DNA from: a virus
Lineage: Duplodnaviria; Heunggongvirae; Uroviricota; Caudoviricetes
Direction: 5' to 3' (one strand)
Virus record (IMG/VR): IMGVR_UViG_3300027852_001421
Length of the DNA: 64,000 nucleotides
Below are positions 11,626 to 61,041 of the stretch, one piece after another. The translations under genes and the position numbers were made by a program. The notes below the pieces were generated by a model. It made no database searches and was not told the origin of the DNA. It saw nothing but the letters and a program-made list of their open reading frames with translations. Each line of letters starts with the position of its first letter. Position 1 is the first letter of the stretch.

Positions 11626-13131
11626 TCAAATGATGAAATTGGCCTCATCAGCCAGATCGCTTTCTTGATCGTCGCCCATCTCTACGAGGAAGCGCTCACC
11701 TGTTTCTTTCAGGCTCACGGAGAACAGCAGCTCGTCATCGATACTCACTTCGCTGATATCAAGATCCGCAAAACTGTCTACGCTCACCCCATTTCCAAAT
11801 TGGATAACGTCTTCTCCAGCTGTGAAATCCTTGATGATATCGAGTTGCGCGTATTTTTCTGTCTCTGTTCCTTCGAGGGAGTCCCAGACCTGCAGGTCGC
11901 CGGCGTCAAAGCGGTAGGTGTCCTTCCCTGCCCCGCCATATAGCGTGTCTGTGCCCGAGCCGCCCGTCAGTGTGTCATTGCCGGTGCCGCCGCGGAGAAG
12001 GTCATCACCGGATCCACCCACGAGATGATCATCTTCAGAGCCCCCGTAGAGCGTGTCATCCCCGGCGCCGCCACGGACTTCGTCCATATCCATACCCCCG
12101 GCCAGGTGGTCGTCGCCATTGCCACCATAGATCGTGTCATTGCCCTTACCTGCATCGACAACATCATCCCCATCACCGGCGCGGAACAAGCCATCTGCAT
12201 CGGGTGTCTTCTGAACATCCCAGATCCAATCATCACCATCGGTGCCAGCAATCGAGTCCTCCGTGTTCTTCATCATGTTCAGGTCTTCATCAAATGAGCC
12301 CTTGGGGACGTAGTTTTGCTGGTCGATGTAATCGACCACTGGCAGTGCAGACAGATCCTCGGGCATTTCAGAGAAATGCGTTTCAGCTCCGGCATGGCGC
12401 GCGCCTTCGAGCGCATAGAGCCCTTTGTCTCCGAGGCGCAGCCATTGCTGGTCGAGATACTCGACCACATCGACGCCTTCAGGAAGATCATGCAGAACCA
12501 GTTCTTGCCCCTCAAGGACGATCACATCGCGGGTGATATCGAAGTCCTCGATGCGACCCAAAATGGGGCTGTTGAGCTGACCGATATTGTCAAACTCGAT
12601 CGTGTCGTTGCCGGTGCCTGTGTAGACATGATGGCCGTCGTAGTTGCTTTCATTGGTCAGATCGAGAACGATGCGATCGTCGCCCTCCCCGCCGCCGACA
12701 TGAACCTGACCGAAACCTGGGATCGAGGAGATAAGCGTATCATCGCCATGGCCGCCCCAAAGCTCGCTGTATCCTTCTGATCCGTCTAGGATGATGATGT
12801 CGTCACCGCCCAAACCGCTGAACCGGTCTTCACCGCCATTGCCGGACATGATGTCTTTTGCGCCAGTGCCCGAGAGACGCTCATCTGCCGAGGTGCCTTG
12901 GATGCGATCACCTGGGATATCACTCTCCAGATCAAGCGTATCGATGACCGCCACACCATCATCGTAGGACCTGATGTCAAAGCCACCCTCTTCCGGGTCT
13001 GGCTGGGTCGGCTCCACTGGGTCCACGGGATCCGGGCGGGAGGGATCCAAGGGTTCAGAGGATTTACTGCTGGATCCGCCACTCATTCCGAAGGCGGCGC
13101 CGAGGCCAAGTAGGATCAATAGGAATTGCAT
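11626..13131 (-). CDS. RTX (hemolysin-type calcium-binding repeat) secreted protein
   Basis: Multiple GGxGxDxL/I nonapeptide repeats (GGNGDDHLAGG..GGAGDDTLYGG..GGSGDDLLRGGTGNDTLTGGSGTDTLYGGAGKDTY). Leaderless acidic C-terminus is consistent with a T1SS substrate. Confidence 0.75.
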   Translation of the reverse strand: MQFLLILLGLGAAFGMSGGSSSKSSEPLDPSRPDPVDPVEPTQPDPEEGGFDIRSYDDGVAVIDTLDLESDIPGDRIQGTSADERLSGTGAKDIMSGNGGEDRFSGLGGDDIIILDGSEGYSELWGGHGDDTLISSIPGFGQVHVGGGEGDDRIVLDLTNESNYDGHHVYTGTGNDTIEFDNIGQLNSPILGRIEDFDITRDVIVLEGQELVLHDLPEGVDVVEYLDQQWLRLGDKGLYALEGARHAGAETHFSEMPEDLSALPVVDYIDQQNYVPKGSFDEDLNMMKNTEDSIAGTDGDDWIWDVQKTPDADGLFRAGDGDDVVDAGKGNDTIYGGNGDDHLAGGMDMDEVRGGAGDDTLYGGSEDDHLVGGSGDDLLRGGTGNDTLTGGSGTDTLYGGAGKDTYRFDAGDLQVWDSLEGTETEKYAQLDIIKDFTAGEDVIQFGNGVSVDSFADLDISEVSIDDELLFSVSLKETGERFLVEMGDDQESDLADEANFII

Positions 13132-19116: not shown

Positions 19117-19971
19117 TCAGACGGACCGCTTCATATGCTTGTACTTCCGATCAAAGCTCGCGAGCTTCGGCAAGTCCATGGCGGCTGGCGACGCGCGCAT
19201 CTTGCCATGATCCAGGAACAGGCTGACAGCACGATCCCGATTGATGATCTTCATCGATTTGTCGTCCTGACGTGGCCCCCAGCCGACCCGCAGCAGATAG
19301 TTCAGCATGGCATCCGGATCGACACCGTCATCGCGGTAGCCCAGAAGACTTGCCGCGGCATCGCGTTTGGACATCTTCTTGCCGTCCATGGTAATCAAGC
19401 CGACATGAGCGAAGTCCGGCATAGGTGCCCCTAAGGCGCTGTAGAGCCCAGCATGGCGGAAGGTATTTGTCAGATGATCCATGCCGCGGATCACGAGGTT
19501 CACTCCAAGATCGATGTCATCGACCACGGAGGCGAAATGATAGACCGGCATGCCGTCGGCTTTGATCAGAACCTGATCACGCGCCAGATCATGCGCCTTG
19601 GCGCTGGGCAGCTGATCGCCGGAAATCAGATCGCTCCATGGCGCTGCCGCCCCACCCTTCATCAACACGGCGCCATTGTCGGCACGCATGGCGAGCCCGG
19701 CATCGAGGAGCTTGGCGGCAGCGGCATCATAGATGTCGCGCCGGTGCGACTGACGGTAGACGGCATCGGGCGCAAGCCCCAACCAATCGAGGCAGTCATG
19801 AATGACGTCGATCGAGGCGTGGTTGTTGCGCGAAAGATCCGTGTCATCGATGCGCAGGATGAAGCGACCGCCACTGGCGCGTGCAGACAACCAGTTGAAA
19901 TAGGCGGTGCGGGCGGTGCCGATGTGAAAGTCGCCTGTTGGCGATGGGGCAACGCGGGTCGTATAGGTCAC
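19117..19971 (-). CDS. gluQ: glutamyl-Q tRNA(Asp) synthetase (truncated GluRS paralog)
   Basis: Class I HIGH region PSPTGDFHIGTARTA and KMSKR motif. About 284 aa, lacking the anticodon-binding domain. GTG start with AAAGGA 9 nt upstream gives an N-terminus colinear with E. coli GluQRS. Confidence 0.8.
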   Translation of the reverse strand: MTYTTRVAPSPTGDFHIGTARTAYFNWLSARASGGRFILRIDDTDLSRNNHASIDVIHDCLDWLGLAPDAVYRQSHRRDIYDAAAAKLLDAGLAMRADNGAVLMKGGAAAPWSDLISGDQLPSAKAHDLARDQVLIKADGMPVYHFASVVDDIDLGVNLVIRGMDHLTNTFRHAGLYSALGAPMPDFAHVGLITMDGKKMSKRDAAASLLGYRDDGVDPDAMLNYLLRVGWGPRQDDKSMKIINRDRAVSLFLDHGKMRASPAAMDLPKLASFDRKYKHMKRSV

Positions 19972-19984
19972 TGTGAAAATCCTT

Positions 19985-20335
19985 TCAGACGCCAATTCGA
20001 TGTGCGTGAGCCTGCAGGTCTTCCGGGTCCGCGATGCGCGAGACGCAGAATGCCATTGGCTCATTGAGAGAAGCCGCAACCAGATCAGGAAACTCGGCTT
20101 TGAGGGTTCGGTATGAGGCCAGGGCTTCTTCATCGAAATACGATCCTGTGTGGACCGATGTGGGCAAGTAATCTCCGGATGTCGGATCAAAGAGGCGTTG
20201 TGCATCATGAGTTGATCTCTGTCGCGTTTGAAGAACCTTGCTACGCATCCATGCAGCTGCTTCACCCCGATCGGGGAAGCGGGGCAGCTCCGGATCTGGG
20301 GAACGTCGTTTGAAACGGCTCAACATGGACAACAT
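19985..20335 (-). CDS. hypothetical protein (116 aa)
   Basis: ORF directly upstream of gluQ on the same strand. Confidence 0.45.
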   Translation of the reverse strand: MLSMLSRFKRRSPDPELPRFPDRGEAAAWMRSKVLQTRQRSTHDAQRLFDPTSGDYLPTSVHTGSYFDEEALASYRTLKAEFPDLVAASLNEPMAFCVSRIADPEDLQAHAHRIGV

Positions 20336-20340
20336 CTTGG

Positions 20341-20416
20341 TCTCCTAAATTTGGCATCCGCAGCGAGGATCGAACTCGCGTCTTCGGGGTGAGGTCCCGG
20401 TATTCTGACCAATTGA
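20341..20416 (-). tRNA. tRNA, probable tRNA-Glu (anticodon CUC) with atypical features
   Basis: Cloverleaf drawn by hand. Acceptor GTCCGCA/TGCGGAT (G1-U72 wobble), D arm GTTC-AATTGGTCA-GAAT, anticodon arm CCGGG-ACCTCAC-CCCGA (C at position 33, one C-A mismatch), T arm GCGAG-TTCGATC-CTCGC, discriminator G, encoded CCA. Total 76 nt. Confidence 0.6.
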
Positions 20417-20429
20417 ACTATGCGGACGT

Positions 20430-20505
20430 GGTGGTGATTTTGGCATCTCCTACGAGTCTCGAACTCGTTTCTGCTGCTTGAAAGGCGACTGTTCTAACCG
20501 GGTGA
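20430..20505 (-). tRNA. tRNA-Glu (anticodon UUC)
   Basis: Acceptor GTCTCCT/AGGAGAT (again G1-U72), D arm GTTC-ACCCGGTTA-GAAC, anticodon arm GTCGC-CTTTCAA-GCAGC, T arm ACGAG-TTCGAGA-CTCGT, G73, CCA. Same architecture as the neighbouring tRNA, 13 nt apart. Confidence 0.6.
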
Positions 20506-20525
20506 ACTAAGGAGACGTAAGGGCA

Positions 20526-20551
20526 TAAAAAAACCCGCCTCAGGGGCGGGT
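20526..20551 (-). terminator. Rho-independent terminator (minus strand)
   Basis: acccgcc-tcagg-ggcgggt hairpin with an A-run on the plus strand, giving a T-run after the hairpin on the minus strand. It lies between the 20805..21227 gene and the tRNA pair. Confidence 0.55.
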
Positions 20552-20804
20552 GCATGGGTATCGGGCGCGAAACTGAACTCTGGCGTCAGCGCGTCTCTCG
20601 ATACCCGGATTGTTCTTCCTGAAAACGGAACATGGTCTTCTTCCTTTGATTACACAGAGTTTCTCGCACATGAGTTTGGACAGCGCAAGTATTATTTTCG
20701 CAAAATGCGGAATTGGCTTGCAAGCCCCGCTCAAGCAGGGTTCTTCACCCAATCCCCCTGGAAGCCCCGTCTGTTCACGGCGGGAATGGATAGGGTGAAA
20801 CACA

Positions 20805-21945: not shown

Positions 21946-23223
21946 TCAAGGACAGGGGGCCTCCACGTCTAGGGCTGTCCGTAGGGTGATCTCAACATTC
22001 TCGCGGCAGGGCCCTTCTGATTTGATCTTGAGATCATGCCCGCAAAGACCTGCGATGACCTCGGCGAGGTTCTCGCTGCTAATCTCTGAGACAAAAGGCC
22101 CCTCCCCCATATCCATCACCGAGATCTCGATATTATCGCCCAGCTGATCAAGGCAAGTGACCCCCAGGCCATGATCAATGTCTACGCCCTGCCCTGCGCT
22201 GCGCGCGAGATCGGCCGAGATGATGCGGTCCAACTCTCTGAGATCCAAGGGCGCGTAGCGGATGGCGTCCTGCCATTCGTTTGGCCTGTTGGTGCGGTCG
22301 ATCACCTCGGTGCCAGGCAAGGGTGTCGTTCCGCGGTCGAGCGGGAACGGCCCTGCCCCGTGCCGCGTGGCATAGGCGCGGGTCATGTAGATGATCTCTA
22401 GATCCGTGATCCCGGCGTTTCGGGCGATTTCCACCATGTTCTTGGCGCCCGTATGAGACCGCGTCACATGAGGAAAGACCCCGAGATCCATATCGAGCTG
22501 CAAACCTTGAGCGCCTTCGAAAACCACCGCATCGCGATCGCACAAGGCATCATCCGACATGAGGGAGACAACAGCCCTATATCTGTGCAGATCTTTTGCA
22601 AACCGGCCAGTGAAGCCCGATACATCGCTCAGAACAGGCTTCAGGTGATCTGGGATATCTGTAAGCCCCAAGGCTGCCAGCCGCGCGGGCACCCAGACCG
22701 AGGCGATCTCTCTCAGGCGTGACATCAGGTCTGGCGAGGTAAGGTCCTGCATGGTGAGAGAAGGGCCATTCTCTTGGCGCTCGAGGGTTTCCCCAAACCC
22801 CAGGCCGCAAGAGCCATGTTTATCACCACCGCGGGCAATTTCAGCGGCTTGATTGATGGCCATGTCCCAAGGTGTGGTGATTGGCGAGCGTGGATCGGCT
22901 GTGATTTGCAGATCTCGAACGCCTTTGCGCGCGAGATCCTCCAGCTCCGAAAAGAAGACCATTGGATGGGAGACAAAGAAGCGCGACAGATGCGTGGCCG
23001 CGCCCCGGAAGGATCCGGAGCCGATATGGTGAAATACATGGTGGCGACCGTCGCCCATGGTGACCCCGTGGCCCGCCTGTGCGCCGCCATTGGAGCGCAC
23101 CACGGTCACTTGGCGCCCCTGCTCCACAAGCTGTGCTGTAAGTGCGTCTGTGCCCAGCCCCTTACCTTCATCACCCCAGCCGGCGCCGATGATCCCATAG
23201 ACTTTGCGGATGTCATTTCCCAT
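21946..23223 (-). CDS. adenylosuccinate synthetase (PurA)-family protein, divergent paralog
   Basis: IIGAGWGDEGKGLGTD (PurA P-loop GDEGKGK with the last K replaced by L), GGAQAGHGV (the GGNNAGHT region), VVFEGAQGLQLDMDLGVFPHVTRSHT (the FEGAQG..D.D.GTYP.VTSS region). Confidence 0.7.
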   Translation of the reverse strand: MGNDIRKVYGIIGAGWGDEGKGLGTDALTAQLVEQGRQVTVVRSNGGAQAGHGVTMGDGRHHVFHHIGSGSFRGAATHLSRFFVSHPMVFFSELEDLARKGVRDLQITADPRSPITTPWDMAINQAAEIARGGDKHGSCGLGFGETLERQENGPSLTMQDLTSPDLMSRLREIASVWVPARLAALGLTDIPDHLKPVLSDVSGFTGRFAKDLHRYRAVVSLMSDDALCDRDAVVFEGAQGLQLDMDLGVFPHVTRSHTGAKNMVEIARNAGITDLEIIYMTRAYATRHGAGPFPLDRGTTPLPGTEVIDRTNRPNEWQDAIRYAPLDLRELDRIISADLARSAGQGVDIDHGLGVTCLDQLGDNIEISVMDMGEGPFVSEISSENLAEVIAGLCGHDLKIKSEGPCRENVEITLRTALDVEAPCP

Positions 23224-42673: not shown

Positions 42674-44008
42674 TTACAGCTCCGGCAGCGCAGGACCCTT
42701 AAGCTCGCACACCGGAGCCCCAAAGGGGTCCGCCACTGCGCTGTGATCCAAACCCACAGACCTGCCAGCTTCCGAGAAACTTGTCTGAAGTGTTTCGAGG
42801 TCTGCCTCGCTTGCTCCACGGTCCGAGAGCACCCGGCGCCAGCTTTTGCCCACCATGTGGCTCATATCATTGGCAATCTCGATCGCGCGTACCTGAGAGA
42901 CACCAAGGCTGGCGGCACCCATCACAGCATTCTCCAATGTCGCCTCCCGGCCGCAACCCGCCTTACCGAGGTGCATGAAGAGGCTGCGGCTCGTCGAGAA
43001 GCCTGTAGAAGGTGTGACGTCATAGACCGGGCTCGGCTCATAGAGCCCCTGATCGTTCAGCAGAAAGGCATGGTTCCGGTAGTGGTCATCTGTATTGCCA
43101 CATAGGACATTCATGACCATCCGCTTATAGATGGTCTCGCCAGCATCCTCCGCAGCGCCATAGCGGCGCATCCCATCATAGAGGTCCGCATAGCCGGAGG
43201 CGGCCCGGTCCATCTCATGGGCCCCGAGCAGGGTAAGGCCCGAGATCATATGACGCCGGTGGAGCTTGCCGCTCTCATCAGGCTCGCGGTCAAAGCGTTT
43301 CAGAAGCAATGTCGGACGCCCGGCCACATCAATGATGTCGCGTTCGCAAACCGCGAGGCCCGCCATCTCACACAGATCGAGGCAGCCCGCCTCGGCCGCG
43401 GCCATGGTGATGCTGTCGCTCTCGATGCCGAACTTGGCCAACCAGGGATGATCATTGATCGTCACCGTGCCCTTGGGGCGCGCGCCACCCAGATCAGCAC
43501 CGGGTGAAACGTGGTCAAGCAGGTGATCCGGCACATGGCGGCCCGTCTTGAAGGTGTCGACCATCTCCTGAAAAGCCTCGAGCGTGCCGAGATCAGAGGA
43601 GACATCGGGCAGACCCACATCGAGGATTTGACCGGGCCCTTCCGTGGTGGGGCCGAACTGCACACCGCCGATCCGCGTGCCGCGCTGGGAGACCAGGAGA
43701 TACTCGGCCTCGGAGGCATTCCGGCCCTCGGTGCGCTTCATGTAGAGATCGATGAGCTTGCGCCCCCAGGCGTCCGGAGCGGCATCGCGGATCCCGTTAA
43801 ACAGGGTGAAGTCCTCATGGGTGCGCAGATGGTCTTTGCCCAAAGGCATCTGGACGGGGTCGATGGCCACTGCGTCGGGGCGCTCGAGGTACTTGCGGCC
43901 GTAGTCGAAATCTGAGCGCGAATAACGTCCGTCTTCTGTGATTACCAAACGTCCGACCGGTACAGTTTCGCCGTGCAGTTCAAGAAATACGATTGCCTTA
44001 TGTTCCAT
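42674..44008 (-). CDS. hipA: HipA-family serine/threonine kinase toxin
   Basis: HipA N-terminal coupling domain pattern, DLGGARPKGTV, and catalytic NTDDHYRNHAFLL (NxDDHxxN loop). 444 aa. Confidence 0.8.
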   Translation of the reverse strand: MEHKAIVFLELHGETVPVGRLVITEDGRYSRSDFDYGRKYLERPDAVAIDPVQMPLGKDHLRTHEDFTLFNGIRDAAPDAWGRKLIDLYMKRTEGRNASEAEYLLVSQRGTRIGGVQFGPTTEGPGQILDVGLPDVSSDLGTLEAFQEMVDTFKTGRHVPDHLLDHVSPGADLGGARPKGTVTINDHPWLAKFGIESDSITMAAAEAGCLDLCEMAGLAVCERDIIDVAGRPTLLLKRFDREPDESGKLHRRHMISGLTLLGAHEMDRAASGYADLYDGMRRYGAAEDAGETIYKRMVMNVLCGNTDDHYRNHAFLLNDQGLYEPSPVYDVTPSTGFSTSRSLFMHLGKAGCGREATLENAVMGAASLGVSQVRAIEIANDMSHMVGKSWRRVLSDRGASEADLETLQTSFSEAGRSVGLDHSAVADPFGAPVCELKGPALPEL

Positions 44009-44706
44009 CAGAAATCCAATTCATTGTCGCTGGCCGAGACCGGCTCGGGCGTTTCGTTATCGACCTGTGTTATGGGGCCGCGCCGGCCCGCAATGCGGTC
44101 ATGGAGATTGTCGTTGAGATTGGCTTGCTGCACAGGATCAGTCTTGCTGCAAAAAGCGGACAGAACCTGATCATCAAGCCCCATGACCCAAGCCGCTGTG
44201 GCAATTGCGCCAAAGCTGATCCGGTCATCCCCCTTCTCCATGCGGATGACAGTACGCCTTCCTACGTTCATCCTATCGGCAAGCTGCTCCTGGCTCATCA
44301 CTCGAGCACGACGTGCCGCACTGATGTCCTGTCCGAATTGCTCGATTTCAGAGATCGGTTCAGCAGGTGCTGCTTTGATCTCCGCAGCGCGATTTTGATG
44401 AATACGCCTCTTCAAATTCAGACGCGCCTCACGCTGTCGAACGGCGTCCTTTGCGCCCTCAAATGCAGACAGGATTTGTTGCTGCATTCCCATAACGCGT
44501 GCCCCGGCGACATAGGTGCCGAAGCTCACTCGGTCGTCCCCTTTTTCCATGCGGATAACCGTTTGTCGTGTAACGTCGATCTGATCTGCCAATTGCCCCT
44601 GACTCAGATTCCGCGCGCGACGCGCAGCGCTGAAATCACGGCCGAAATCAGCCAGCTTCTCAAGCAGCTTGTCTGGCATCGTCTCATAGATCTTCCGCTC
44701 TCTCAT
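44008..44706 (-). CDS. hipB: HipB-like antitoxin with two tandem XRE-type HTH domains
   Basis: Two copies of ARRARN/VLSQ.QLAD.....RQT.IRMEKGDDR.SFG. ATGA overlap with hipA. Start taken at ATG 44706 (GAGGG RBS); alternative GTG at 44724. Confidence 0.7.
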   Translation of the reverse strand: MRERKIYETMPDKLLEKLADFGRDFSAARRARNLSQGQLADQIDVTRQTVIRMEKGDDRVSFGTYVAGARVMGMQQQILSAFEGAKDAVRQREARLNLKRRIHQNRAAEIKAAPAEPISEIEQFGQDISAARRARVMSQEQLADRMNVGRRTVIRMEKGDDRISFGAIATAAWVMGLDDQVLSAFCSKTDPVQQANLNDNLHDRIAGRRGPITQVDNETPEPVSASDNELDF

Positions 44707-44856
44707 GCTGCCCTCATGTGTCACATGGATTACAATTTCCGCTTAATGTGCCAGATAAGTAACATATAAGATACCCATTTGTCTAAGAGAAGCAGAGCAT
44801 AACCCTCTCAGTCCATCATCACTCAAGACAAAGAAAATCCAAAATGGGGAAGGAAT

Positions 44857-46950: not shown

Positions 46951-48102
46951 TTACCTAAAAGCGTCTCGGGATGCCTTGAAGGACGCTACCAGGGCATCAT
47001 GAACCACAGGTTCTGGCGGTGCTTCCCCCTCCTCGCAGTCTCCCCCCAAGCTCACGAGCTCTGAGAGCGCCGCAGAGCGCCCAGGACGGCCCTCAAGACC
47101 AAAGGCGCGGCGCACATCTGCCAAGGTCTCCATGGTGATCACATGGGCGCGTTTGCGGCCCTCCTCGAGGATGTGGGCCACCAACCCTTCGTCAGCTGCG
47201 GCTTCAGCGCGACGCATCCGCATCGGCGCCAACATGTCCTGCAAGATCCCGTCCAAGCGACGCTTCAGAACCATATCGCCGAGCCCGCCGGCGCGGTACT
47301 GATCCTTAAGTTCGGCGACAGCATCGCTGTCCGGATCAAATGCATCGAGCATCGCAAAGACAACATTGCCCTCGACCTTGCCAGGATCAGAGACCTTCAG
47401 GTGACCGGGATCGGTGAACATCCGCAAGACCGCCGCGCGGATCTCCTCCGGGCTGTCGCGGAGCGCGATGGCATTTCCGGCGGACTTTGACATCTTGCCC
47501 GCCCCGTCGATGCCCGGTAGGCGCGGTGCGTTGCTCTGGATCAAGGTCGGGGTGACCAGCACGTTGCGCCCCGCCATGCGGTTTACCTTTCCCGCGATCT
47601 CACTGGTGATCTCCACAAGCGGCGCCTGGTCGGCGCCCGCGGGCACAATGTCCGCGCCAAAGGCTGTGATGTCGGCCGCCTGGCTCACGGGGTAGCAAAG
47701 AAAGCCCGCCGGGGTGCCATCGCCAAAGCCGCGCTGGGCGATCTCCTCACGGATTGTGGGGATGCGCATCAGCCGCGGCACGGTGACCAGGTTCATATAG
47801 AGCATGGTCAGCTCGTTGAGTGCCGGCAGATCGGATTGACGTACGATGGTCACCCGTTCCGGGTCGATGCCGGCCGCAATGTAATCGAGCACCACCTCGC
47901 GCACATTGGCCGCCACATCAGCGGCGCGCCCGGCGTTGTCTGTCAGCGCCTGCATGTCAGCCACCAGAATGGTCACATCGTTCTTGTCCTGCAGAGCGGC
48001 GCGCGCCTGAAGGGTGCCGGCCAGATGGCCGAGATGCAGCGGACCGGTGGGCCGGTCGCCGGTGAGAATGGTTTTGCCTTCGAGGGTCGAGAGATCTTGC
48101 AT
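46951..48102 (-). CDS. trpS: tryptophan--tRNA ligase
   Basis: HIGH-type TGPLHLGHLAG and KMSKS motifs. 383 aa with a C-terminal extension of about 40 aa. Confidence 0.85.
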   Translation of the reverse strand: MQDLSTLEGKTILTGDRPTGPLHLGHLAGTLQARAALQDKNDVTILVADMQALTDNAGRAADVAANVREVVLDYIAAGIDPERVTIVRQSDLPALNELTMLYMNLVTVPRLMRIPTIREEIAQRGFGDGTPAGFLCYPVSQAADITAFGADIVPAGADQAPLVEITSEIAGKVNRMAGRNVLVTPTLIQSNAPRLPGIDGAGKMSKSAGNAIALRDSPEEIRAAVLRMFTDPGHLKVSDPGKVEGNVVFAMLDAFDPDSDAVAELKDQYRAGGLGDMVLKRRLDGILQDMLAPMRMRRAEAAADEGLVAHILEEGRKRAHVITMETLADVRRAFGLEGRPGRSAALSELVSLGGDCEEGEAPPEPVVHDALVASFKASRDAFR

Positions 48103-52433: not shown

Positions 52434-52581
52434 GAAGCCGCGCCCGCGGTAGCGGACCGGAACCCTGCCAGTTTGACCTATTAAGAATTGTGCCCTACCG
52501 TTTCATCTGTGTTGCGCCACCAGCTGGGTGAACGTGACGATGCAATTTTCAGACTCCGCGAATTTTCAAGAAAGGTCATAT

Positions 52582-53574
52582 ATGCCCAAATTCCTTGATG
52601 GTGCTAAATTACTCCAGCGCATGAATACCGAACTAAGACACTCAAAAAGCGCCGATCTCGCAGTCGCATTCTGGGGTGCCGGCGCGGCAGATGCGCTTGG
52701 CATCCAAGATGGAGCCAAGTTGCGGATCGTCTGCAACCTGATGAGCGGCGGCACGAACCCCAAAGAGATCAGCAAGCTTCAGGCGGGCGGTGCTGAGGTA
52801 CGCCAGCTTAACGATCTTCACGCAAAGATTGGCGTGATCGGAAATATGTCCTTCGTGGGGTCATCGAACATGTCGGCCAATGGCCTCGGCGCGGAGGGAC
52901 GCGCTGCACATTGGAGAGAGGCAAATGCTGTTTATGCAAAGGCTCGACCCGAAATTGCAAAGATGTTCAAAGGTTACTGGAAAGCTTCAGAGCCCATTAC
53001 AGAGGATGACCTGACAGCAGCCGCAGCCGCTTGGGCCAACCGGCAGCGTGGCAATGCAGTGGTGGCTGCGCGCAAAGGCGATCGAGGCTTGATCGACGTC
53101 CTGCGCAGCGCGCCTGAAGAACTGGATGCGCTCAATGTAAGAATGGTGGTCTTCGACACGATGACCGACCCGGATGAACTGGAGGTTCTCGATACGGCGG
53201 ACCAACAAGCCCAGGAAATGTACGGCCCTACCTTCTCCGTGTATTGGGACTGGGAGAGCATGGCGAAAGCCGCCCAATCCGCCTATCTCGTCTCATTCGA
53301 CTGGCCTGCGCGCGGCGGTATAGCGCGGGGCACGGTCCTTCGGCGCAATGCAGATGAGTTCTCGGATTTCGAAAAGGATGGCAGCATCTTCCATCCTGCC
53401 TATGAGGTCGAAAGCATTGAAGGGATGACGGTCGATGCGGGCGACAAAGCCGCCCTGCGCAAGGCATTCTCAGCCTATGTCAAAGCCGGTGCGACTGGAG
53501 AAGAGGATGAAGATCGGGCCTACAACTTCCCCATTTCGGAGTTGGCGCCCTATCTTCCACCGGCCAACAGCTGA
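52582..53574 (+). CDS. PLD-like (HKD-motif) domain protein, degenerate motif
   Basis: HAKIGVIGNMSFVGSSNMSANG: H-x-K then G in place of D, then the G/S-S-x-N tail of the HKD signature. Acidic C-terminal region. Confidence 0.5.
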   Translation: MPKFLDGAKLLQRMNTELRHSKSADLAVAFWGAGAADALGIQDGAKLRIVCNLMSGGTNPKEISKLQAGGAEVRQLNDLHAKIGVIGNMSFVGSSNMSANGLGAEGRAAHWREANAVYAKARPEIAKMFKGYWKASEPITEDDLTAAAAAWANRQRGNAVVAARKGDRGLIDVLRSAPEELDALNVRMVVFDTMTDPDELEVLDTADQQAQEMYGPTFSVYWDWESMAKAAQSAYLVSFDWPARGGIARGTVLRRNADEFSDFEKDGSIFHPAYEVESIEGMTVDAGDKAALRKAFSAYVKAGATGEEDEDRAYNFPISELAPYLPPANS

Positions 53575-57402: not shown

Positions 57403-57658
57403 GTGGCTCTCGCACATCCCAAGAGATGTGCTGCCACCCTCACTCCAGCTCCGCTGAAGTGAGTATGCCTCTCCCAGAGATTTCCGGAGGAAACTCGTCG
57501 GAGCGACGCGCATCGCTTATGCGATGCGCTGGCTCACACCTCCATCCGGAGGTGTTGCCGACTGTCACACTGACTTCGCCAGTATGACTAGGCTCTCGCA
57601 CATCTAAAGAGATGTGCTGCCGCCCTCACTTCAGCTGCGCTGGAGTGAGTATGCGAAA
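57403..57658 (+). repeat. two about 68-nt direct repeats (57403..57470 and 57590..57658), each with two hairpins, flanking copy 2 of the 125-nt element (57469..57593)
   Basis: ggctctcgcacatc(cc/ta)aagagatgtgctgcc(a/g)ccctcact(c/t)cagct(c/g)cgctg(a/g)agtgagtatgc, about 90% identical; the second copy ends in TATGCGAAAAA. Confidence 0.55.
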
Positions 57659-57822
57659 AATCGTTGACCGGATGTAATCTCTGGCTTACATAGGCCTCAT
57701 GATGAACATGATCGCCTCCACCACGACGACAACAACCACCCATCCCGGGCGGAGCGTTGTCGTGTGAGTTGATCGGATCAACATACCAGACTTTGAACCC
57801 CGCCACCGACGCGGGGTTTTTT
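57652..57822 (+). promoter_or_regulatory. thrS-paralog leader: TGCGAAAAA motif, sigma70-like promoter TTGACC-17-TACATA, leaderless 22-codon leader peptide with 7 consecutive Thr codons (57699..57767), intrinsic terminator (57798..57822)
   Basis: ATG ATG AAC ATG ATC GCC TCC ACC ACG ACG ACA ACA ACC ACC CAT ... TGA; ccccgc-caccgac-gcgggg followed by tttttt, 45 nt before the thrS-like ATG. Confidence 0.6.
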
Positions 57823-57866
57823 ATTGTCTCGCGTCCAATCTGACACCCCTCAAAAGGACCAAGACA

Positions 57867-59117
57867 ATGAATGAGAACAGCCCCCAAGACCTGAATATTC
57901 CACAAGAGCAAGGCATGGACCCGCTGGACCATCGCGTGCTCGCGCGCCGCCTCGATCTCTATCACATCGAGGAAGATGCCCCGGGCATGATCTACTGGCA
58001 CTCTGCCGGCTGGCAGATCTACCGCGAGCTCGAAGACTACATCCGCGGCCGCATGCGCAGCCTGGGCTACGGCGAGGTGCGTTCGCCGCAGCTGCTGCCC
58101 CAGTCCCTCTGGGAGGCGTCAGGTCACTGGGAGAAGTTCGGCGAGAACATGTTCGCAGTGCCGGCGCGCGAGGAAGGCGGCCGGGACATGGCACTGAAGC
58201 CTATGAGCTGCCCCTGCCACCTGCAGATCTTCAACTCCGACCTGCGTTCCTGGCGTGATCTGCCGATGCGCATTGCCGAGTTCGGCCAGTGCCACCGCGA
58301 TGAGGCTTCTGGATCGATGCACGGGTTGATGCGCACCAAGGCCTTCGAGCAGGACGATGCCCATGTGATATGCGATGCCGATCAGGTCCGCGGCGAGGTG
58401 GCGCGTTTCGTTGAGCTGCTGAAGGAAGTTTATGCCGCCTTGGGTTTTGCCGATTTTGAAGTGGCGCTGTCGCTGCGCCCCGAAAAGCGTGCCGGCAATG
58501 ATGCAGATTGGGATCACGCGGAAAAGGAACTGCTGGAAGCGGCCCTCTCCTGCGGGCTCGACCCGAGGCTGCAGCTCGGCGAAGGCGCCTTCTACGGGCC
58601 CAAACTGGAGTTCGCGCTGCGCGACAAGAAAGGCCGTTCCTGGCAGTGTGGCACCATCCAGCTCGATATGGTCCTGCCGGGCCGTCTGGACGCCTCCTAT
58701 GTTGGTAAAGACGGCGCTAAACATGTGCCGGTCATGCTGCACCACGCGGTGCTGGGATCCCTGGGGCGCTTTATCGGCATCCTTCTTGAGCATTGTGAAG
58801 GCCGCCTGCCCCTTTGGTTGGCACCGGTGCAGGTGGCGGTGCTGCCAATCGGGGACGACCAGCGCGACGCCGCAGTTGCGGTCATGGATCAGCTGCGCGC
58901 GGCGGGGCTGCGCCCTGCCCTTTTTGATCAGTCCGAAGGGCTCGGCCGCCGGATCGTCATGGTCCGCGATCAGTTGATCCCGGTACAGATCGTGATTGGC
59001 AAACGGGAGGTGGAGCGCGGCGAAGTGATGCTGCAGATCGGCGGAGGCAAAGAGGCGCTGTCGTCGGCCGCGGCCATCGCGCGGCTGGATGAGCTTGCCG
59101 GGGTGCCGAAGGGGTGA
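57867..59117 (+). CDS. thrS: threonine--tRNA ligase paralog lacking the N-terminal TGS and editing domains (catalytic core plus anticodon-binding domain only)
   Basis: Begins about 20 residues before DHRVLARRLDLYHIEEDAPGMIYWH, which aligns with E. coli ThrRS from about residue 243. Class II motifs FRELE..IR, PMSCPCHLQIF, AEFGQCHRDEASGSMHGLMRTKAFEQDDAHV, GEGAFYGPKLEF and HHAVLGSLGRFIGIL all present. 416 aa versus about 640 for the full enzyme. Confidence 0.8.
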   Translation: MNENSPQDLNIPQEQGMDPLDHRVLARRLDLYHIEEDAPGMIYWHSAGWQIYRELEDYIRGRMRSLGYGEVRSPQLLPQSLWEASGHWEKFGENMFAVPAREEGGRDMALKPMSCPCHLQIFNSDLRSWRDLPMRIAEFGQCHRDEASGSMHGLMRTKAFEQDDAHVICDADQVRGEVARFVELLKEVYAALGFADFEVALSLRPEKRAGNDADWDHAEKELLEAALSCGLDPRLQLGEGAFYGPKLEFALRDKKGRSWQCGTIQLDMVLPGRLDASYVGKDGAKHVPVMLHHAVLGSLGRFIGILLEHCEGRLPLWLAPVQVAVLPIGDDQRDAAVAVMDQLRAAGLRPALFDQSEGLGRRIVMVRDQLIPVQIVIGKREVERGEVMLQIGGGKEALSSAAAIARLDELAGVPKG

Positions 59118-60396: not shown

Positions 60397-61041
60397 ATGA
60401 CCGTAAAGTCCTCCGGCCAGATGGCCTTCCCCACCTATACTGGCGCGCGCTGCTACATGATACCCTTCATCCAGGGGCGTGCTGAAAGCCTGCCTGAAGC
60501 CTATGCGGGCTATGGTGATGTGGTGGAACGCTTCGCCCTGCCCGGCCAGGAGGGCGAGTTGGGTCTCATCACCATCGACGAGAGCATGGTAGCCGCCGGC
60601 GCATCGCAGCGTGGCTACGGCGCCGGGGATCGCACGATCCATACGGAAGCCTGCCTGCGCGAAAGCCTTCTGACCTGGGGGCCGAGCTCTCCCACCTGGG
60701 GCGACGGGCCCGGCTTTGTCGAGCTGGAGCGCGAAACGCGTGTGCTGATCGCCAACTCAATTCCGGACACCTGCATGATCTGGGACCTTGATGTCGAAGA
60801 CACCACAGCGGACGGCGATCTCTCGGCGCGCGCGGCCGAGTTCCCGCGGACATCAGGGCGTATGATGGCGGCCGGTGAAGTGGTGGAAATCGGGATCTTC
60901 ACCCCGCATGAGCCAATCGCACAGGCGGAGGCTGGGCCGCGCCAGTTCTTCCGGATCGTTGGTAAAGGGGTCCACGGCCGTGAAGAATATTTCACCCGGA
61001 ATCCAGTTCTGGAGAAGCGGGTGGGTCTGGCACAGCTTTAA
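60397..61041 (+). CDS. hypothetical protein (214 aa)
   Basis: TTTTTCGCA motif 50 nt upstream. Globular composition. Confidence 0.5.
   Translation: MTVKSSGQMAFPTYTGARCYMIPFIQGRAESLPEAYAGYGDVVERFALPGQEGELGLITIDESMVAAGASQRGYGAGDRTIHTEACLRESLLTWGPSSPTWGDGPGFVELERETRVLIANSIPDTCMIWDLDVEDTTADGDLSARAAEFPRTSGRMMAAGEVVEIGIFTPHEPIAQAEAGPRQFFRIVGKGVHGREEYFTRNPVLEKRVGLAQL

Follow-up and report, generated by a model that had tools for sequence, protein, structure and literature searches.

The thrS locus

The subject of this report is a thrS gene and its upstream leader in a 64,000-nucleotide stretch of the IMG/VR record IMGVR_UViG_3300027852_001421 (Caudoviricetes); the whole of this stretch, at its full length, is referred to below as the window. 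The gene encodes an N-terminally truncated threonyl-tRNA synthetase (ThrRS) and is preceded by a short open reading frame (ORF) with a run of Thr codons and by an intrinsic terminator. We consider it quite probable that these features together form an attenuator which responds to Thr-tRNAThr and controls an auxiliary ThrRS without editing function. The features of the gene and of the upstream intergenic region are as follows.

57405-57468, + strand: first copy of a 64-nt direct repeat in the intergenic region upstream of thrS, which may not belong to the switch
57591-57654, + strand: second copy of the 64-nt direct repeat, ending at the TGCGAAAAA box
57652-57660, + strand: TGCGAAAAA box, 3 nt upstream of the -35 hexamer
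57664-57669, + strand: -35 hexamer TTGACC, read from the sequence (TTGAC(N) is kept in 12 of 15 loci)
57687-57692, + strand: -10 hexamer TACATA after a 17-nt spacer, with 6 nt from the end of the hexamer to the leader ATG
57699-57767, + strand: leader ORF of 22 codons (MMNMIASTTTTTTTHPGRSVVV, then stop), with homologous leader ORFs in related loci
57720-57740, + strand: Thr-codon run ACC ACG ACG ACA ACA ACC ACC, segment 1 of the switch and proposed ribosome stall site
57747-57764, + strand: segment 2, consisting of a GGGCGG box (57747-57752) and then GUUGUCGUG (57756-57764)
57795-57823, + strand: intrinsic terminator with 5' arm GAACCCCGC (57795-57803, segment 3), loop (57804-57810), 3' arm GCGGGGTTT (57811-57819) and a T-run to 57823
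57800-57804, + strand: CCGCC at the terminator 5' arm, partner of the box
57854-57858, + strand: Shine-Dalgarno (SD) sequence AAGGA of thrS, 8 nt ahead of the ATG
57867-59117, + strand: thrS, 416 amino acids (aa), class II catalytic core and anticodon-binding domain

The elements of this arrangement that had been named in a preliminary description of the window were recovered. The promoter TTGACC-17-TACATA is present with the ATG 6 nt after the -10 hexamer, ORF translation confirmed the 22-codon leader with seven consecutive Thr codons at 57720-57740, the terminator scan returned the intrinsic terminator 45 nt ahead of thrS (57795-57819 plus T-run), and the TGCGAAAAA motif described at the promoter was located. 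The terminator stem consists of 9 pairs, 6 of them G-C, followed by the T-run. The folding energy of the 138-nt leader RNA was -52.6 kcal/mol (z = -4.5 against dinucleotide shuffles). Three different codons (ACC, ACG, ACA) make up the Thr run, which is thus read by several isoacceptors. The relatives of the window ThrRS begin at the position of its M17 and the window protein therefore has a 16-residue N-terminal extension; the start at 57867 is supported by the AAGGA-N8-ATG spacing, which is shared with the related loci L005, L165, and L167.

Conservation of the leader in related thrS loci

Leaders were compared between the window and 15 further loci of truncated thrS genes (L005, L006, L007, L008, L014, L064, L085, L165, L167, L169, L170, L171, L172, L240, and L241), seven loci of this clade having come from scans of genome and metagenome contigs (six genome, and L085 metagenome). 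Since the patterns used for the contig scans lay in universally conserved motifs, most of the other ThrRS recovered were full length, and their loci were taken as a negative control. An ORF of 22-28 codons with 4-8 Thr codons stood ahead of the truncated thrS in 15/15 further loci, and the terminator followed the leader stop codon at a distance of 21-31 nt in 14/14 loci measured. At 176 loci of full-length thrS whose upstream sequence was long enough, no small ORF with at least four consecutive Thr codons was found within 400 nt upstream of the gene. The helix of the terminator was 94% paired in a set of 13 non-redundant leaders, with compensatory changes at 3 pairs. The leader peptides diverge outside the Thr run (for example ...HPGRSVVV, ...GGSSPGCMR, and ...RSRWLVRI), which argues that the codons and the RNA, not the peptide, are under selection.

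For the comparison of promoters the best -35/-10 pair was sought within 60 nt upstream of the leader ATG. This pair ended 5-9 nt (mostly 6-7 nt) before the ATG in 14/15 loci, which would place the transcription start at or beside the AUG, and an SD-like tetramer was absent from the last 15 nt before the ATG in 14/15 loci. The leaderless geometry proposed in the preliminary description is accordingly a conserved trait of 14/15 loci, and from this geometry the leader ORF is predicted to be translated by leaderless initiation. The transcript of the trpL attenuator of Sinorhizobium meliloti has been described as leaderless (PMC6614838), so that an alphaproteobacterial precedent exists. A leader on a huge-phage contig (L231, described below) has a normal SD sequence, unlike most of the proteobacterial leaders.

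Predicted alternative pairing of the leader RNA

In the unconstrained fold of the leader the Thr run pairs with the downstream segment GUUGUCGUG (window positions as listed above) and the terminator forms. A stalled ribosome was modeled by blocking the 5' RNA as if the ribosome were at the second or fourth Thr codon, and by ending the RNA at the terminator loop. Under these constraints the GGCGG box of the window (57748-57752) pairs with CCGCC, and the G-rich box that follows the Thr run pairs with the 5' arm of the terminator in 13/13 leaders and also in L240, L241, and L231. With the ribosome placed at the stop codon instead, the constrained fold has the box covered and the terminator formed.

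The antiterminator was assessed by duplex energies because the MAFFT alignment was one column out of register between leader subtypes. The sum of the box-arm duplex energies was -203 kcal/mol, compared with -158 kcal/mol (standard deviation 10.5) for shuffled boxes (z = -4.3), and none of 1000 shuffles was as low. In L231 the box and arm read GCUGGG:CCCAGC, a sequence unlike that of the proteobacterial box with the same logic; no other single observation argues as strongly for a functional pairing as this retention of the logic with a different sequence. The possibility of an alternative antiterminator fold, on which the preliminary description had made its proposal of attenuation depend, is therefore borne out by the constrained folds and by the shuffle test.

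Several observations weigh against an attenuator. The core of the window antiterminator comprises just 5 G-C pairs (-12.5 kcal/mol), a value that 10.8% of shuffled boxes reach, and single loci are marginal in the box shuffle test, box and arm both being G+C-rich. When the full-length RNA was folded with a stalled ribosome the terminator was still the thermodynamic optimum in 12/13 leaders (the exception was L005), and the model therefore relies on the order of co-transcriptional folding, as in classical attenuators. Were the ribosome to stall only at the end of the Thr run, it would hide the box. The promoter call is weak when taken alone, since the generic promoter scan omitted TTGACC-17-TACATA; its rule demands T at position 6 of the -10 hexamer. 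Finally, the Rfam family Thr_leader (RF00506) matched over model positions 1-118 with only 22.9 bits against a gathering threshold of 55 (E = 0.054). The leader is analogous to Thr_leader and by Rfam score is not a member of it. The Rfam scan at gathering thresholds found only the two tRNAs, and scans of the region gave no match to the T-box at the gathering threshold or at E <= 10.

Proposed mechanism

According to the model that we favor, a sigma-70-type promoter would start the transcript at or beside the AUG of the 22-codon leader ORF. With ample Thr-tRNAThr the ribosome would cross the seven Thr codons to the UGA and cover segment 2, upon which the hairpin at 57795-57819 would form and end transcription 45 nt ahead of thrS. 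In the absence of a ribosome the Thr run would pair with GUUGUCGUG and the terminator would likewise form. When Thr-tRNAThr is scarce the ribosome would stall early in the Thr run and leave the GGCGG box free, which could then capture CCGCC before the 3' arm is made, so that RNA polymerase would read into thrS. Stalling-dependent read-through into thrS is thus a prediction of the folding models. The product would be a counterpart of the E. coli deltaN-ThrRS fragment that charges tRNAThr without its own hydrolysis of Ser-tRNAThr, and the module as a whole would act as a negative-feedback backup ThrRS, with feedback on the product of the enzyme itself.

The truncated enzyme

Only two Pfam domains, tRNA-synt_2b (PF00587) and HGTP_anticodon (PF03129), were found in the window ThrRS. 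The thrS equivalog model TIGR00418 of NCBIfam matched with 432.5 bits (cut-off: 383.65) over model positions 171-540 of 565, and in the comparison with solved structures D21 of the window protein aligned with residue ~243 of E. coli ThrRS. The best structure matches were the E. coli constructs covering residues 242-642 (E about 1e-122). The domain content, the model coverage and the start of the alignment show that the enzyme lacks the TGS and N2 editing domains, and its description as a ThrRS without them stands. Its proposed likeness to archaeal ThrRS-cat and yeast mitochondrial MST1 holds for the domain architecture and fails for the sequence, which is of the bacterial type (E values of 1e-122 to the E. 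coli core, 1e-68 to MST1, and 4e-48 to Aeropyrum ThrRS-1).

C115, H166, and H292, which correspond to the Zn ligands C334, H385, and H511 of E. coli ThrRS, are invariant across the family, and the Thr/ATP site is retained in the window ThrRS according to the alignment to E. coli residues 242-642. Ten clade-specific substitutions (in E. coli numbering D300P, N333S, Y348W, I386V, R512H, E519G, I526L, I578L, K581R, and R583V) are nearly fixed at sites that are nearly invariant in full-length ThrRS; N333S and R512H adjoin Zn ligands. A detached TGS/N2 editing domain was searched for by tblastn in the window and 12 loci (flanks of 3-5 kb) using nine bacterial ThrRS N-terminal regions as queries, which did not include the archaeal-type (DTD-like) editing domain, and no match was better than E = 0.009.

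The E. coli deltaN-ThrRS charges tRNAThr while being unable to clear Ser-tRNAThr, a result reported by Dock-Bregeon and co-workers in 2000. By analogy the window ThrRS should charge tRNAThr and should not itself hydrolyze Ser-tRNAThr. The function of the ThrRS editing domain is summarized elsewhere (PMC4787780).

Distribution of the truncated ThrRS family

Searching protein collections yielded a large number of ThrRS of 390-410 aa that are 55-77% identical and are named in their sources only as 'threonine--tRNA ligase'. They come from Pseudosulfitobacter, Paracoccus, Cereibacter sphaeroides, Roseivivax, Epibacterium, and Mesobaculum. More truncated copies were found in metagenome-assembled genomes of Sneathiella, Acidocella, Ferrovibrionaceae, and unclassified proteobacteria, and on one metagenome contig. 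In Betaproteobacteria one copy is carried by Caballeronia pSBC2-1 and another by the conjugative 582-kb Burkholderia plasmid pM7012, whose annotation includes a thrS of 402 aa. In a neighbor-joining tree, which was inferred without support values and is indicative only, 40 alphaproteobacterial truncated ThrRS formed one clade apart from 38 full-length ThrRS; the two betaproteobacterial plasmid copies were its sister, and the truncated ThrRS of a 517-kb viral contig branched next. The family is a single clade that travels on accessory DNA in Alpha- and Betaproteobacteria.

N-terminally truncated ThrRS are also encoded by many huge-phage contigs of 435-578 kb (among them L173, L182, L183, L187, L219, L223, L225, and L231). 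On one of these (L231:4804-4940; IMG/VR UViG_3300031133_000383, 437 kb, 31% G+C) the gene stands behind MHIVKNTTTTTTTQIEAGLVRYCR, a leader with seven Thr codons followed by a stop, and the terminator CCCAGC-uaaau-GCUGGG-U7. The truncated copy L100 has no clear leader; a weaker TT(E/Q)TTT ORF without a clear terminator was noted at this locus and at L175 and L182.

The genomic contexts of the relatives favor the status of an extra copy, which we extend to the host of the window as a likely assignment. The contexts include the conjugative plasmid pM7012 and the replicon pSBC2-1, and other copies lie beside integrase or toxin-antitoxin genes. The neighbors vary by locus and comprise a phage-type integrase, AbiEii, HepT/MNT, TROVE/Ro60, a CCA-adding-enzyme homolog, NAMPT, CHAP, and Dam methylase. 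Within named species the distribution is patchy, the Cereibacter sphaeroides protein being present on 4 contigs only.

Comparison with known systems

The classical attenuators of E. coli (thrL-thrABC, trpL, hisL, and pheM-pheST) resemble the window leader in having an ORF with cognate codons, 1:2, 2:3, and 3:4 pairing, and a terminator ahead of the gene, and pheST is also alike in that the regulated gene is the synthetase itself, with direct feedback on charging. The window leader differs from them in being apparently leaderless without an SD sequence and in controlling a single truncated thrS instead of biosynthetic genes, and unlike the classical thr leader it has Thr codons only and no Ile codons. 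The trpL/rnTrpL system of S. meliloti is likewise an alphaproteobacterial ribosome-dependent attenuator with a leaderless transcript (PMC6614838), but it has Trp codons and controls trpE(G) biosynthesis.

The Streptomyces genes trpRS1, trpS2, and leuS offer a parallel in which an auxiliary aminoacyl-tRNA synthetase (aaRS) behind a cognate-codon leader is induced upon charging failure. A 2010 study by Vecchione and Sello reportedly deals with the attenuator of the indolmycin-resistant trpRS1. Attenuators have been predicted ahead of trpS2 and leuS (PMC1262725). These systems differ from the present one in amino acid, phylum, and enzyme class; here a whole domain is lost and no link to an antibiotic is known.

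With regard to the enzyme, the E. coli deltaN-ThrRS (residues 242-642; PDB 1EVK/1EVL) is alike in domain content and N-terminal boundary, but it is a laboratory construct, whereas the window enzyme belongs to a natural conserved family with its own promoter and sensor. Archaeal ThrRS-cat/ThrRS-ed and yeast MST1 are natural ThrRS without a cis editing domain; unlike the truncated family they are the sole ThrRS of their compartment and not regulated extra copies, and the archaeal system has a partner editing gene. Second ThrRS that serve a specific stress are known as B. subtilis thrZ (T-box), Anabaena T2 (Zur, low zinc), and ObaO (obafluorin immunity), but these are all full length, and T2-type genes sit with COG0523/Zur genes. 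In B. subtilis both thrS and thrZ are under T-box control, and the window module shares with them the logic of direct feedback on charging. Anabaena T2 has impaired editing (PMC4787780). No Zur, COG0523, or zinc-sparing domains were found among the neighbors of the window thrS.

The plasmid-borne thrS genes of Phaeobacter inhibens (L237), Thioclava (L238), and Acetobacter (L239) were ruled out as clade members, since their products are full length and their surroundings look like zinc-starvation islands, containing a ZigA/COG0523 GTPase, a Zur-like repressor, paralogs of HisI, FolE, and RibD, and DUF1826. They represent another kind of auxiliary ThrRS in Alphaproteobacteria, separate from the truncated clade and resembling Anabaena T2. 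A thrS ~48% identical to the query was also seen in 570 plasmid records of Klebsiella and in some of E. coli; several of these records are chromosome-sized, so that part of the tally reflects mislabelling.

ThrRS editing is treated as near-universal in bacteria, and the editing-less form is known from archaea, mitochondria, and a serine-mischarging laboratory fragment. The literature searched, which mostly excluded subscription journals, mentions neither a clade of deltaN-ThrRS occurring naturally in bacteria nor a Thr attenuator ahead of thrS, and the reviews and surveys PMC9437257, PMC4787780, PMC5388404, and PMC2965389 describe neither. The parts are familiar, and what seems new is their combination: a ThrRS that lacks editing, is conserved and has spread horizontally is coupled to a Thr sensor with a leaderless start, and a huge phage offers a parallel. 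The leader adds a well-conserved leaderless leader peptide whose 16 natural variants make it a useful model attenuator outside the enterobacteria. It would also give an experimental handle on whether a change to a synthetase without proofreading is a deliberate response of cells to starvation or inhibition. Two questions follow, namely how Ser-tRNAThr is handled (for example through trans-editing by a host enzyme or through heterodimers as in Anabaena T1/T2) and why mobile elements carry genes for an editing-less ThrRS.

Alternative explanations

The attenuated thrS may serve as a starvation backup, as a bypass of an inhibitor, or as insurance of translation for a mobile element or phage. The last of these would make the gene part of a set of backup charging genes with which the element counters defense, or insures itself, when host aaRS or tRNAs are attacked, for instance by HipA-type kinases or by toxins that target tRNAs, or when its own demand is high; we regard it as a tentative explanation, with the odds rather against it. 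The following genes of the window bear on it.

19117-20265, - strand: gltX-like gene for a catalytic domain, 382 aa, below both the gltX and the GluQRS cut-offs
42674-44724, - strand: hipA/hipB-like pair (HipA-like kinase PF07804 and a HipB/Y4mF-type helix-turn-helix gene), 3 kb from trpS
46951-48102, - strand: extra trpS, 383 aa (TIGR00233, 226 bits; cut-off: 176.75)

Upstream of trpS, in the region to 48270, TTGCCT-17-TAAGAT is followed after 6 nt by the ATG of MKQDKPICAINWWLPL (then stop), which contains tandem Trp codons and looks like a second leaderless cognate-codon leader; the long hairpin downstream of it lacks a clean U-run and is not a clean terminator. In the region 19117-20720, directly adjoining the gltX-like gene, ahead of it and on the same strand, are genes for tRNA-Glu(UUC) and tRNA-Glu(CUC), and upstream of the tRNA pair lie a short SD-led ORF (MFRFQEEQSGYRETR, then stop), a strong terminator, and a TGCGAAAA box. 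HipA-family toxins phosphorylate GltX and TrpS, the same two other synthetases that are duplicated in the window. To our knowledge ThrRS is not among the targets of this family, which counts against insurance as the explanation. The preliminary description made no connection between thrS and the two other extra aaRS genes with cognate-codon leaders. It is possible, if doubtful, that ThrRS, TrpRS, and the GluRS-like protein, each behind a short ORF with cognate codons and with a HipA-type pair nearby on one ORFan-rich element of perhaps ~112 kb, form a mobile 'charge-sensing backup aaRS' toolkit. If so, starvation, poisoning, or phosphorylation of the host synthetases would be met by elements with such a toolkit, and by huge phages in which ThrRS and a Thr leader follow the same logic, with restored or re-routed tRNA charging; for ThrRS, Ser-for-Thr mistranslation under stress might be either the cost or the purpose.

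Insurance of the element is also consistent with the neighbors of the relatives listed above, from the CCA-adding-enzyme homolog, NAMPT, CHAP, and TROVE/Ro60 to HepT, AbiEii, integrase, and Dam methylase, and with the abundance of truncated ThrRS on viral contigs, including those of 435-578 kb and L231 with its own Thr leader and terminator. Most other window ORFs tested had no Pfam or PHROG match, and contigs of 112,583 and 112,596 bp in two assemblies hint at a complete replicon. Conversely, no phage structural or plasmid replication genes were identified among the annotated window ORFs, the window had no match by megablast against phage and plasmid collections or by exact 30-mer search in IMG/VR, and no further aaRS gene lay within 5 kb in other truncated-thrS loci.

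A resistance-type ThrRS that is insensitive to a natural inhibitor, such as a protein toxin or a compound like borrelidin or obafluorin, would use the same switch for another selective reason, and we judge this to be unlikely. The logic of the attenuator fits resistance, as uncharged tRNAThr builds up under inhibition of ThrRS, and so do the horizontal spread of truncated thrS on plasmids and the ten near-fixed substitutions of the clade, including N333S and R512H beside the Zn ligands, E519G, and Y348W. The reportedly indolmycin-resistant Streptomyces trpRS1 would be a precedent. The gain of aaRS paralogs by horizontal transfer is a known route to resistance (PMC5388404). The substitution G463S gives ObaO and E. 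coli ThrRS resistance to obafluorin and borrelidin, and L489M has also been examined (PMC11252418), but the corresponding residues are unchanged and invariant in the clade (G244 = E. coli G463, L270 = E. coli L489). Furthermore, ObaO is full length (637 aa), no biosynthetic gene cluster lies beside any locus whose flanks were inspected, and resistance leaves the loss of the editing domain unexplained. An ObaO-type self-resistance ThrRS was rejected on the grounds that Ser463 and Met489 (E. coli numbering; criteria from PMC11252418), both of which ObaO carries, and a biosynthetic cluster in the flanks are all lacking.

It is highly improbable that the gene encodes the sole, essential ThrRS of the host, which would have lost its editing domain and would have its only thrS under attenuation. 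No ORF for an editing domain was found in the window, but the clade occurs on a conjugative plasmid and in integrase and toxin-antitoxin neighborhoods that differ between loci, and it is rare within named species (4 contigs for the C. sphaeroides protein). The named carrier species presumably have a canonical thrS.

E. coli ThrRS represses its own translation. We give hardly any credence to the idea that the short ORF is not a sensor, with thrS under other control (protein autoregulation as in E. coli or a small RNA) or the protein non-translational, as aaRS-like proteins with other roles can be (PMC9437257), because the Thr run, box, and terminator are kept in 16 loci while the peptide varies and do not occur in 176 full-length loci, the enzyme retains every catalytic and Zn residue as well as its domain for anticodon binding, and no Rfam family reaches its threshold in the leader region.

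Further features of the window

Pfam and PHROG gave almost no matches for the ~40 window ORFs annotated. The window also encodes the following.

11626-13131: RTX-repeat protein
21946-23223: divergent purA-like gene
52528-53574: PLD-like gene

The G+C content at third codon positions of the aaRS genes (0.70-0.77) is above that of most of their neighbors. In the 525-nt intergenic region upstream of thrS the two copies of the 64-nt direct repeat are 91% identical and 186 nt apart, and each contains two small hairpins; a third copy was not found within the window. The TGCGAAAAA box occurs in 16 copies in the window, compared with 0.78 expected, mostly upstream of ORFs (sites include 4530, 7662, 8495, 14537, 30411, 57652, and 60345), and often as TTGCGAAAAA with a TAnnnT hexamer about 15-17 nt later. 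Probably it represents an element-specific box for a promoter or regulator. The TGCGAAAAA 8-mer or its reverse complement is also present near the promoter of the thrS leader in the Rhodobacterales loci L165, L167, L169, and L170, where it is enriched.

The two contigs of ~112 kb mentioned above are identical, came from different samples, and suggest a complete replicon of that size. An ORF 1.3 kb downstream of thrS (60397-61041, + strand, 214 aa, no family match) is 70% identical to L169:571-1209, which in Paracoccus litorisediminis lies upstream of the truncated thrS at a distance of 3.8 kb, and this match near the Paracoccus copy suggests shared mobile modules.

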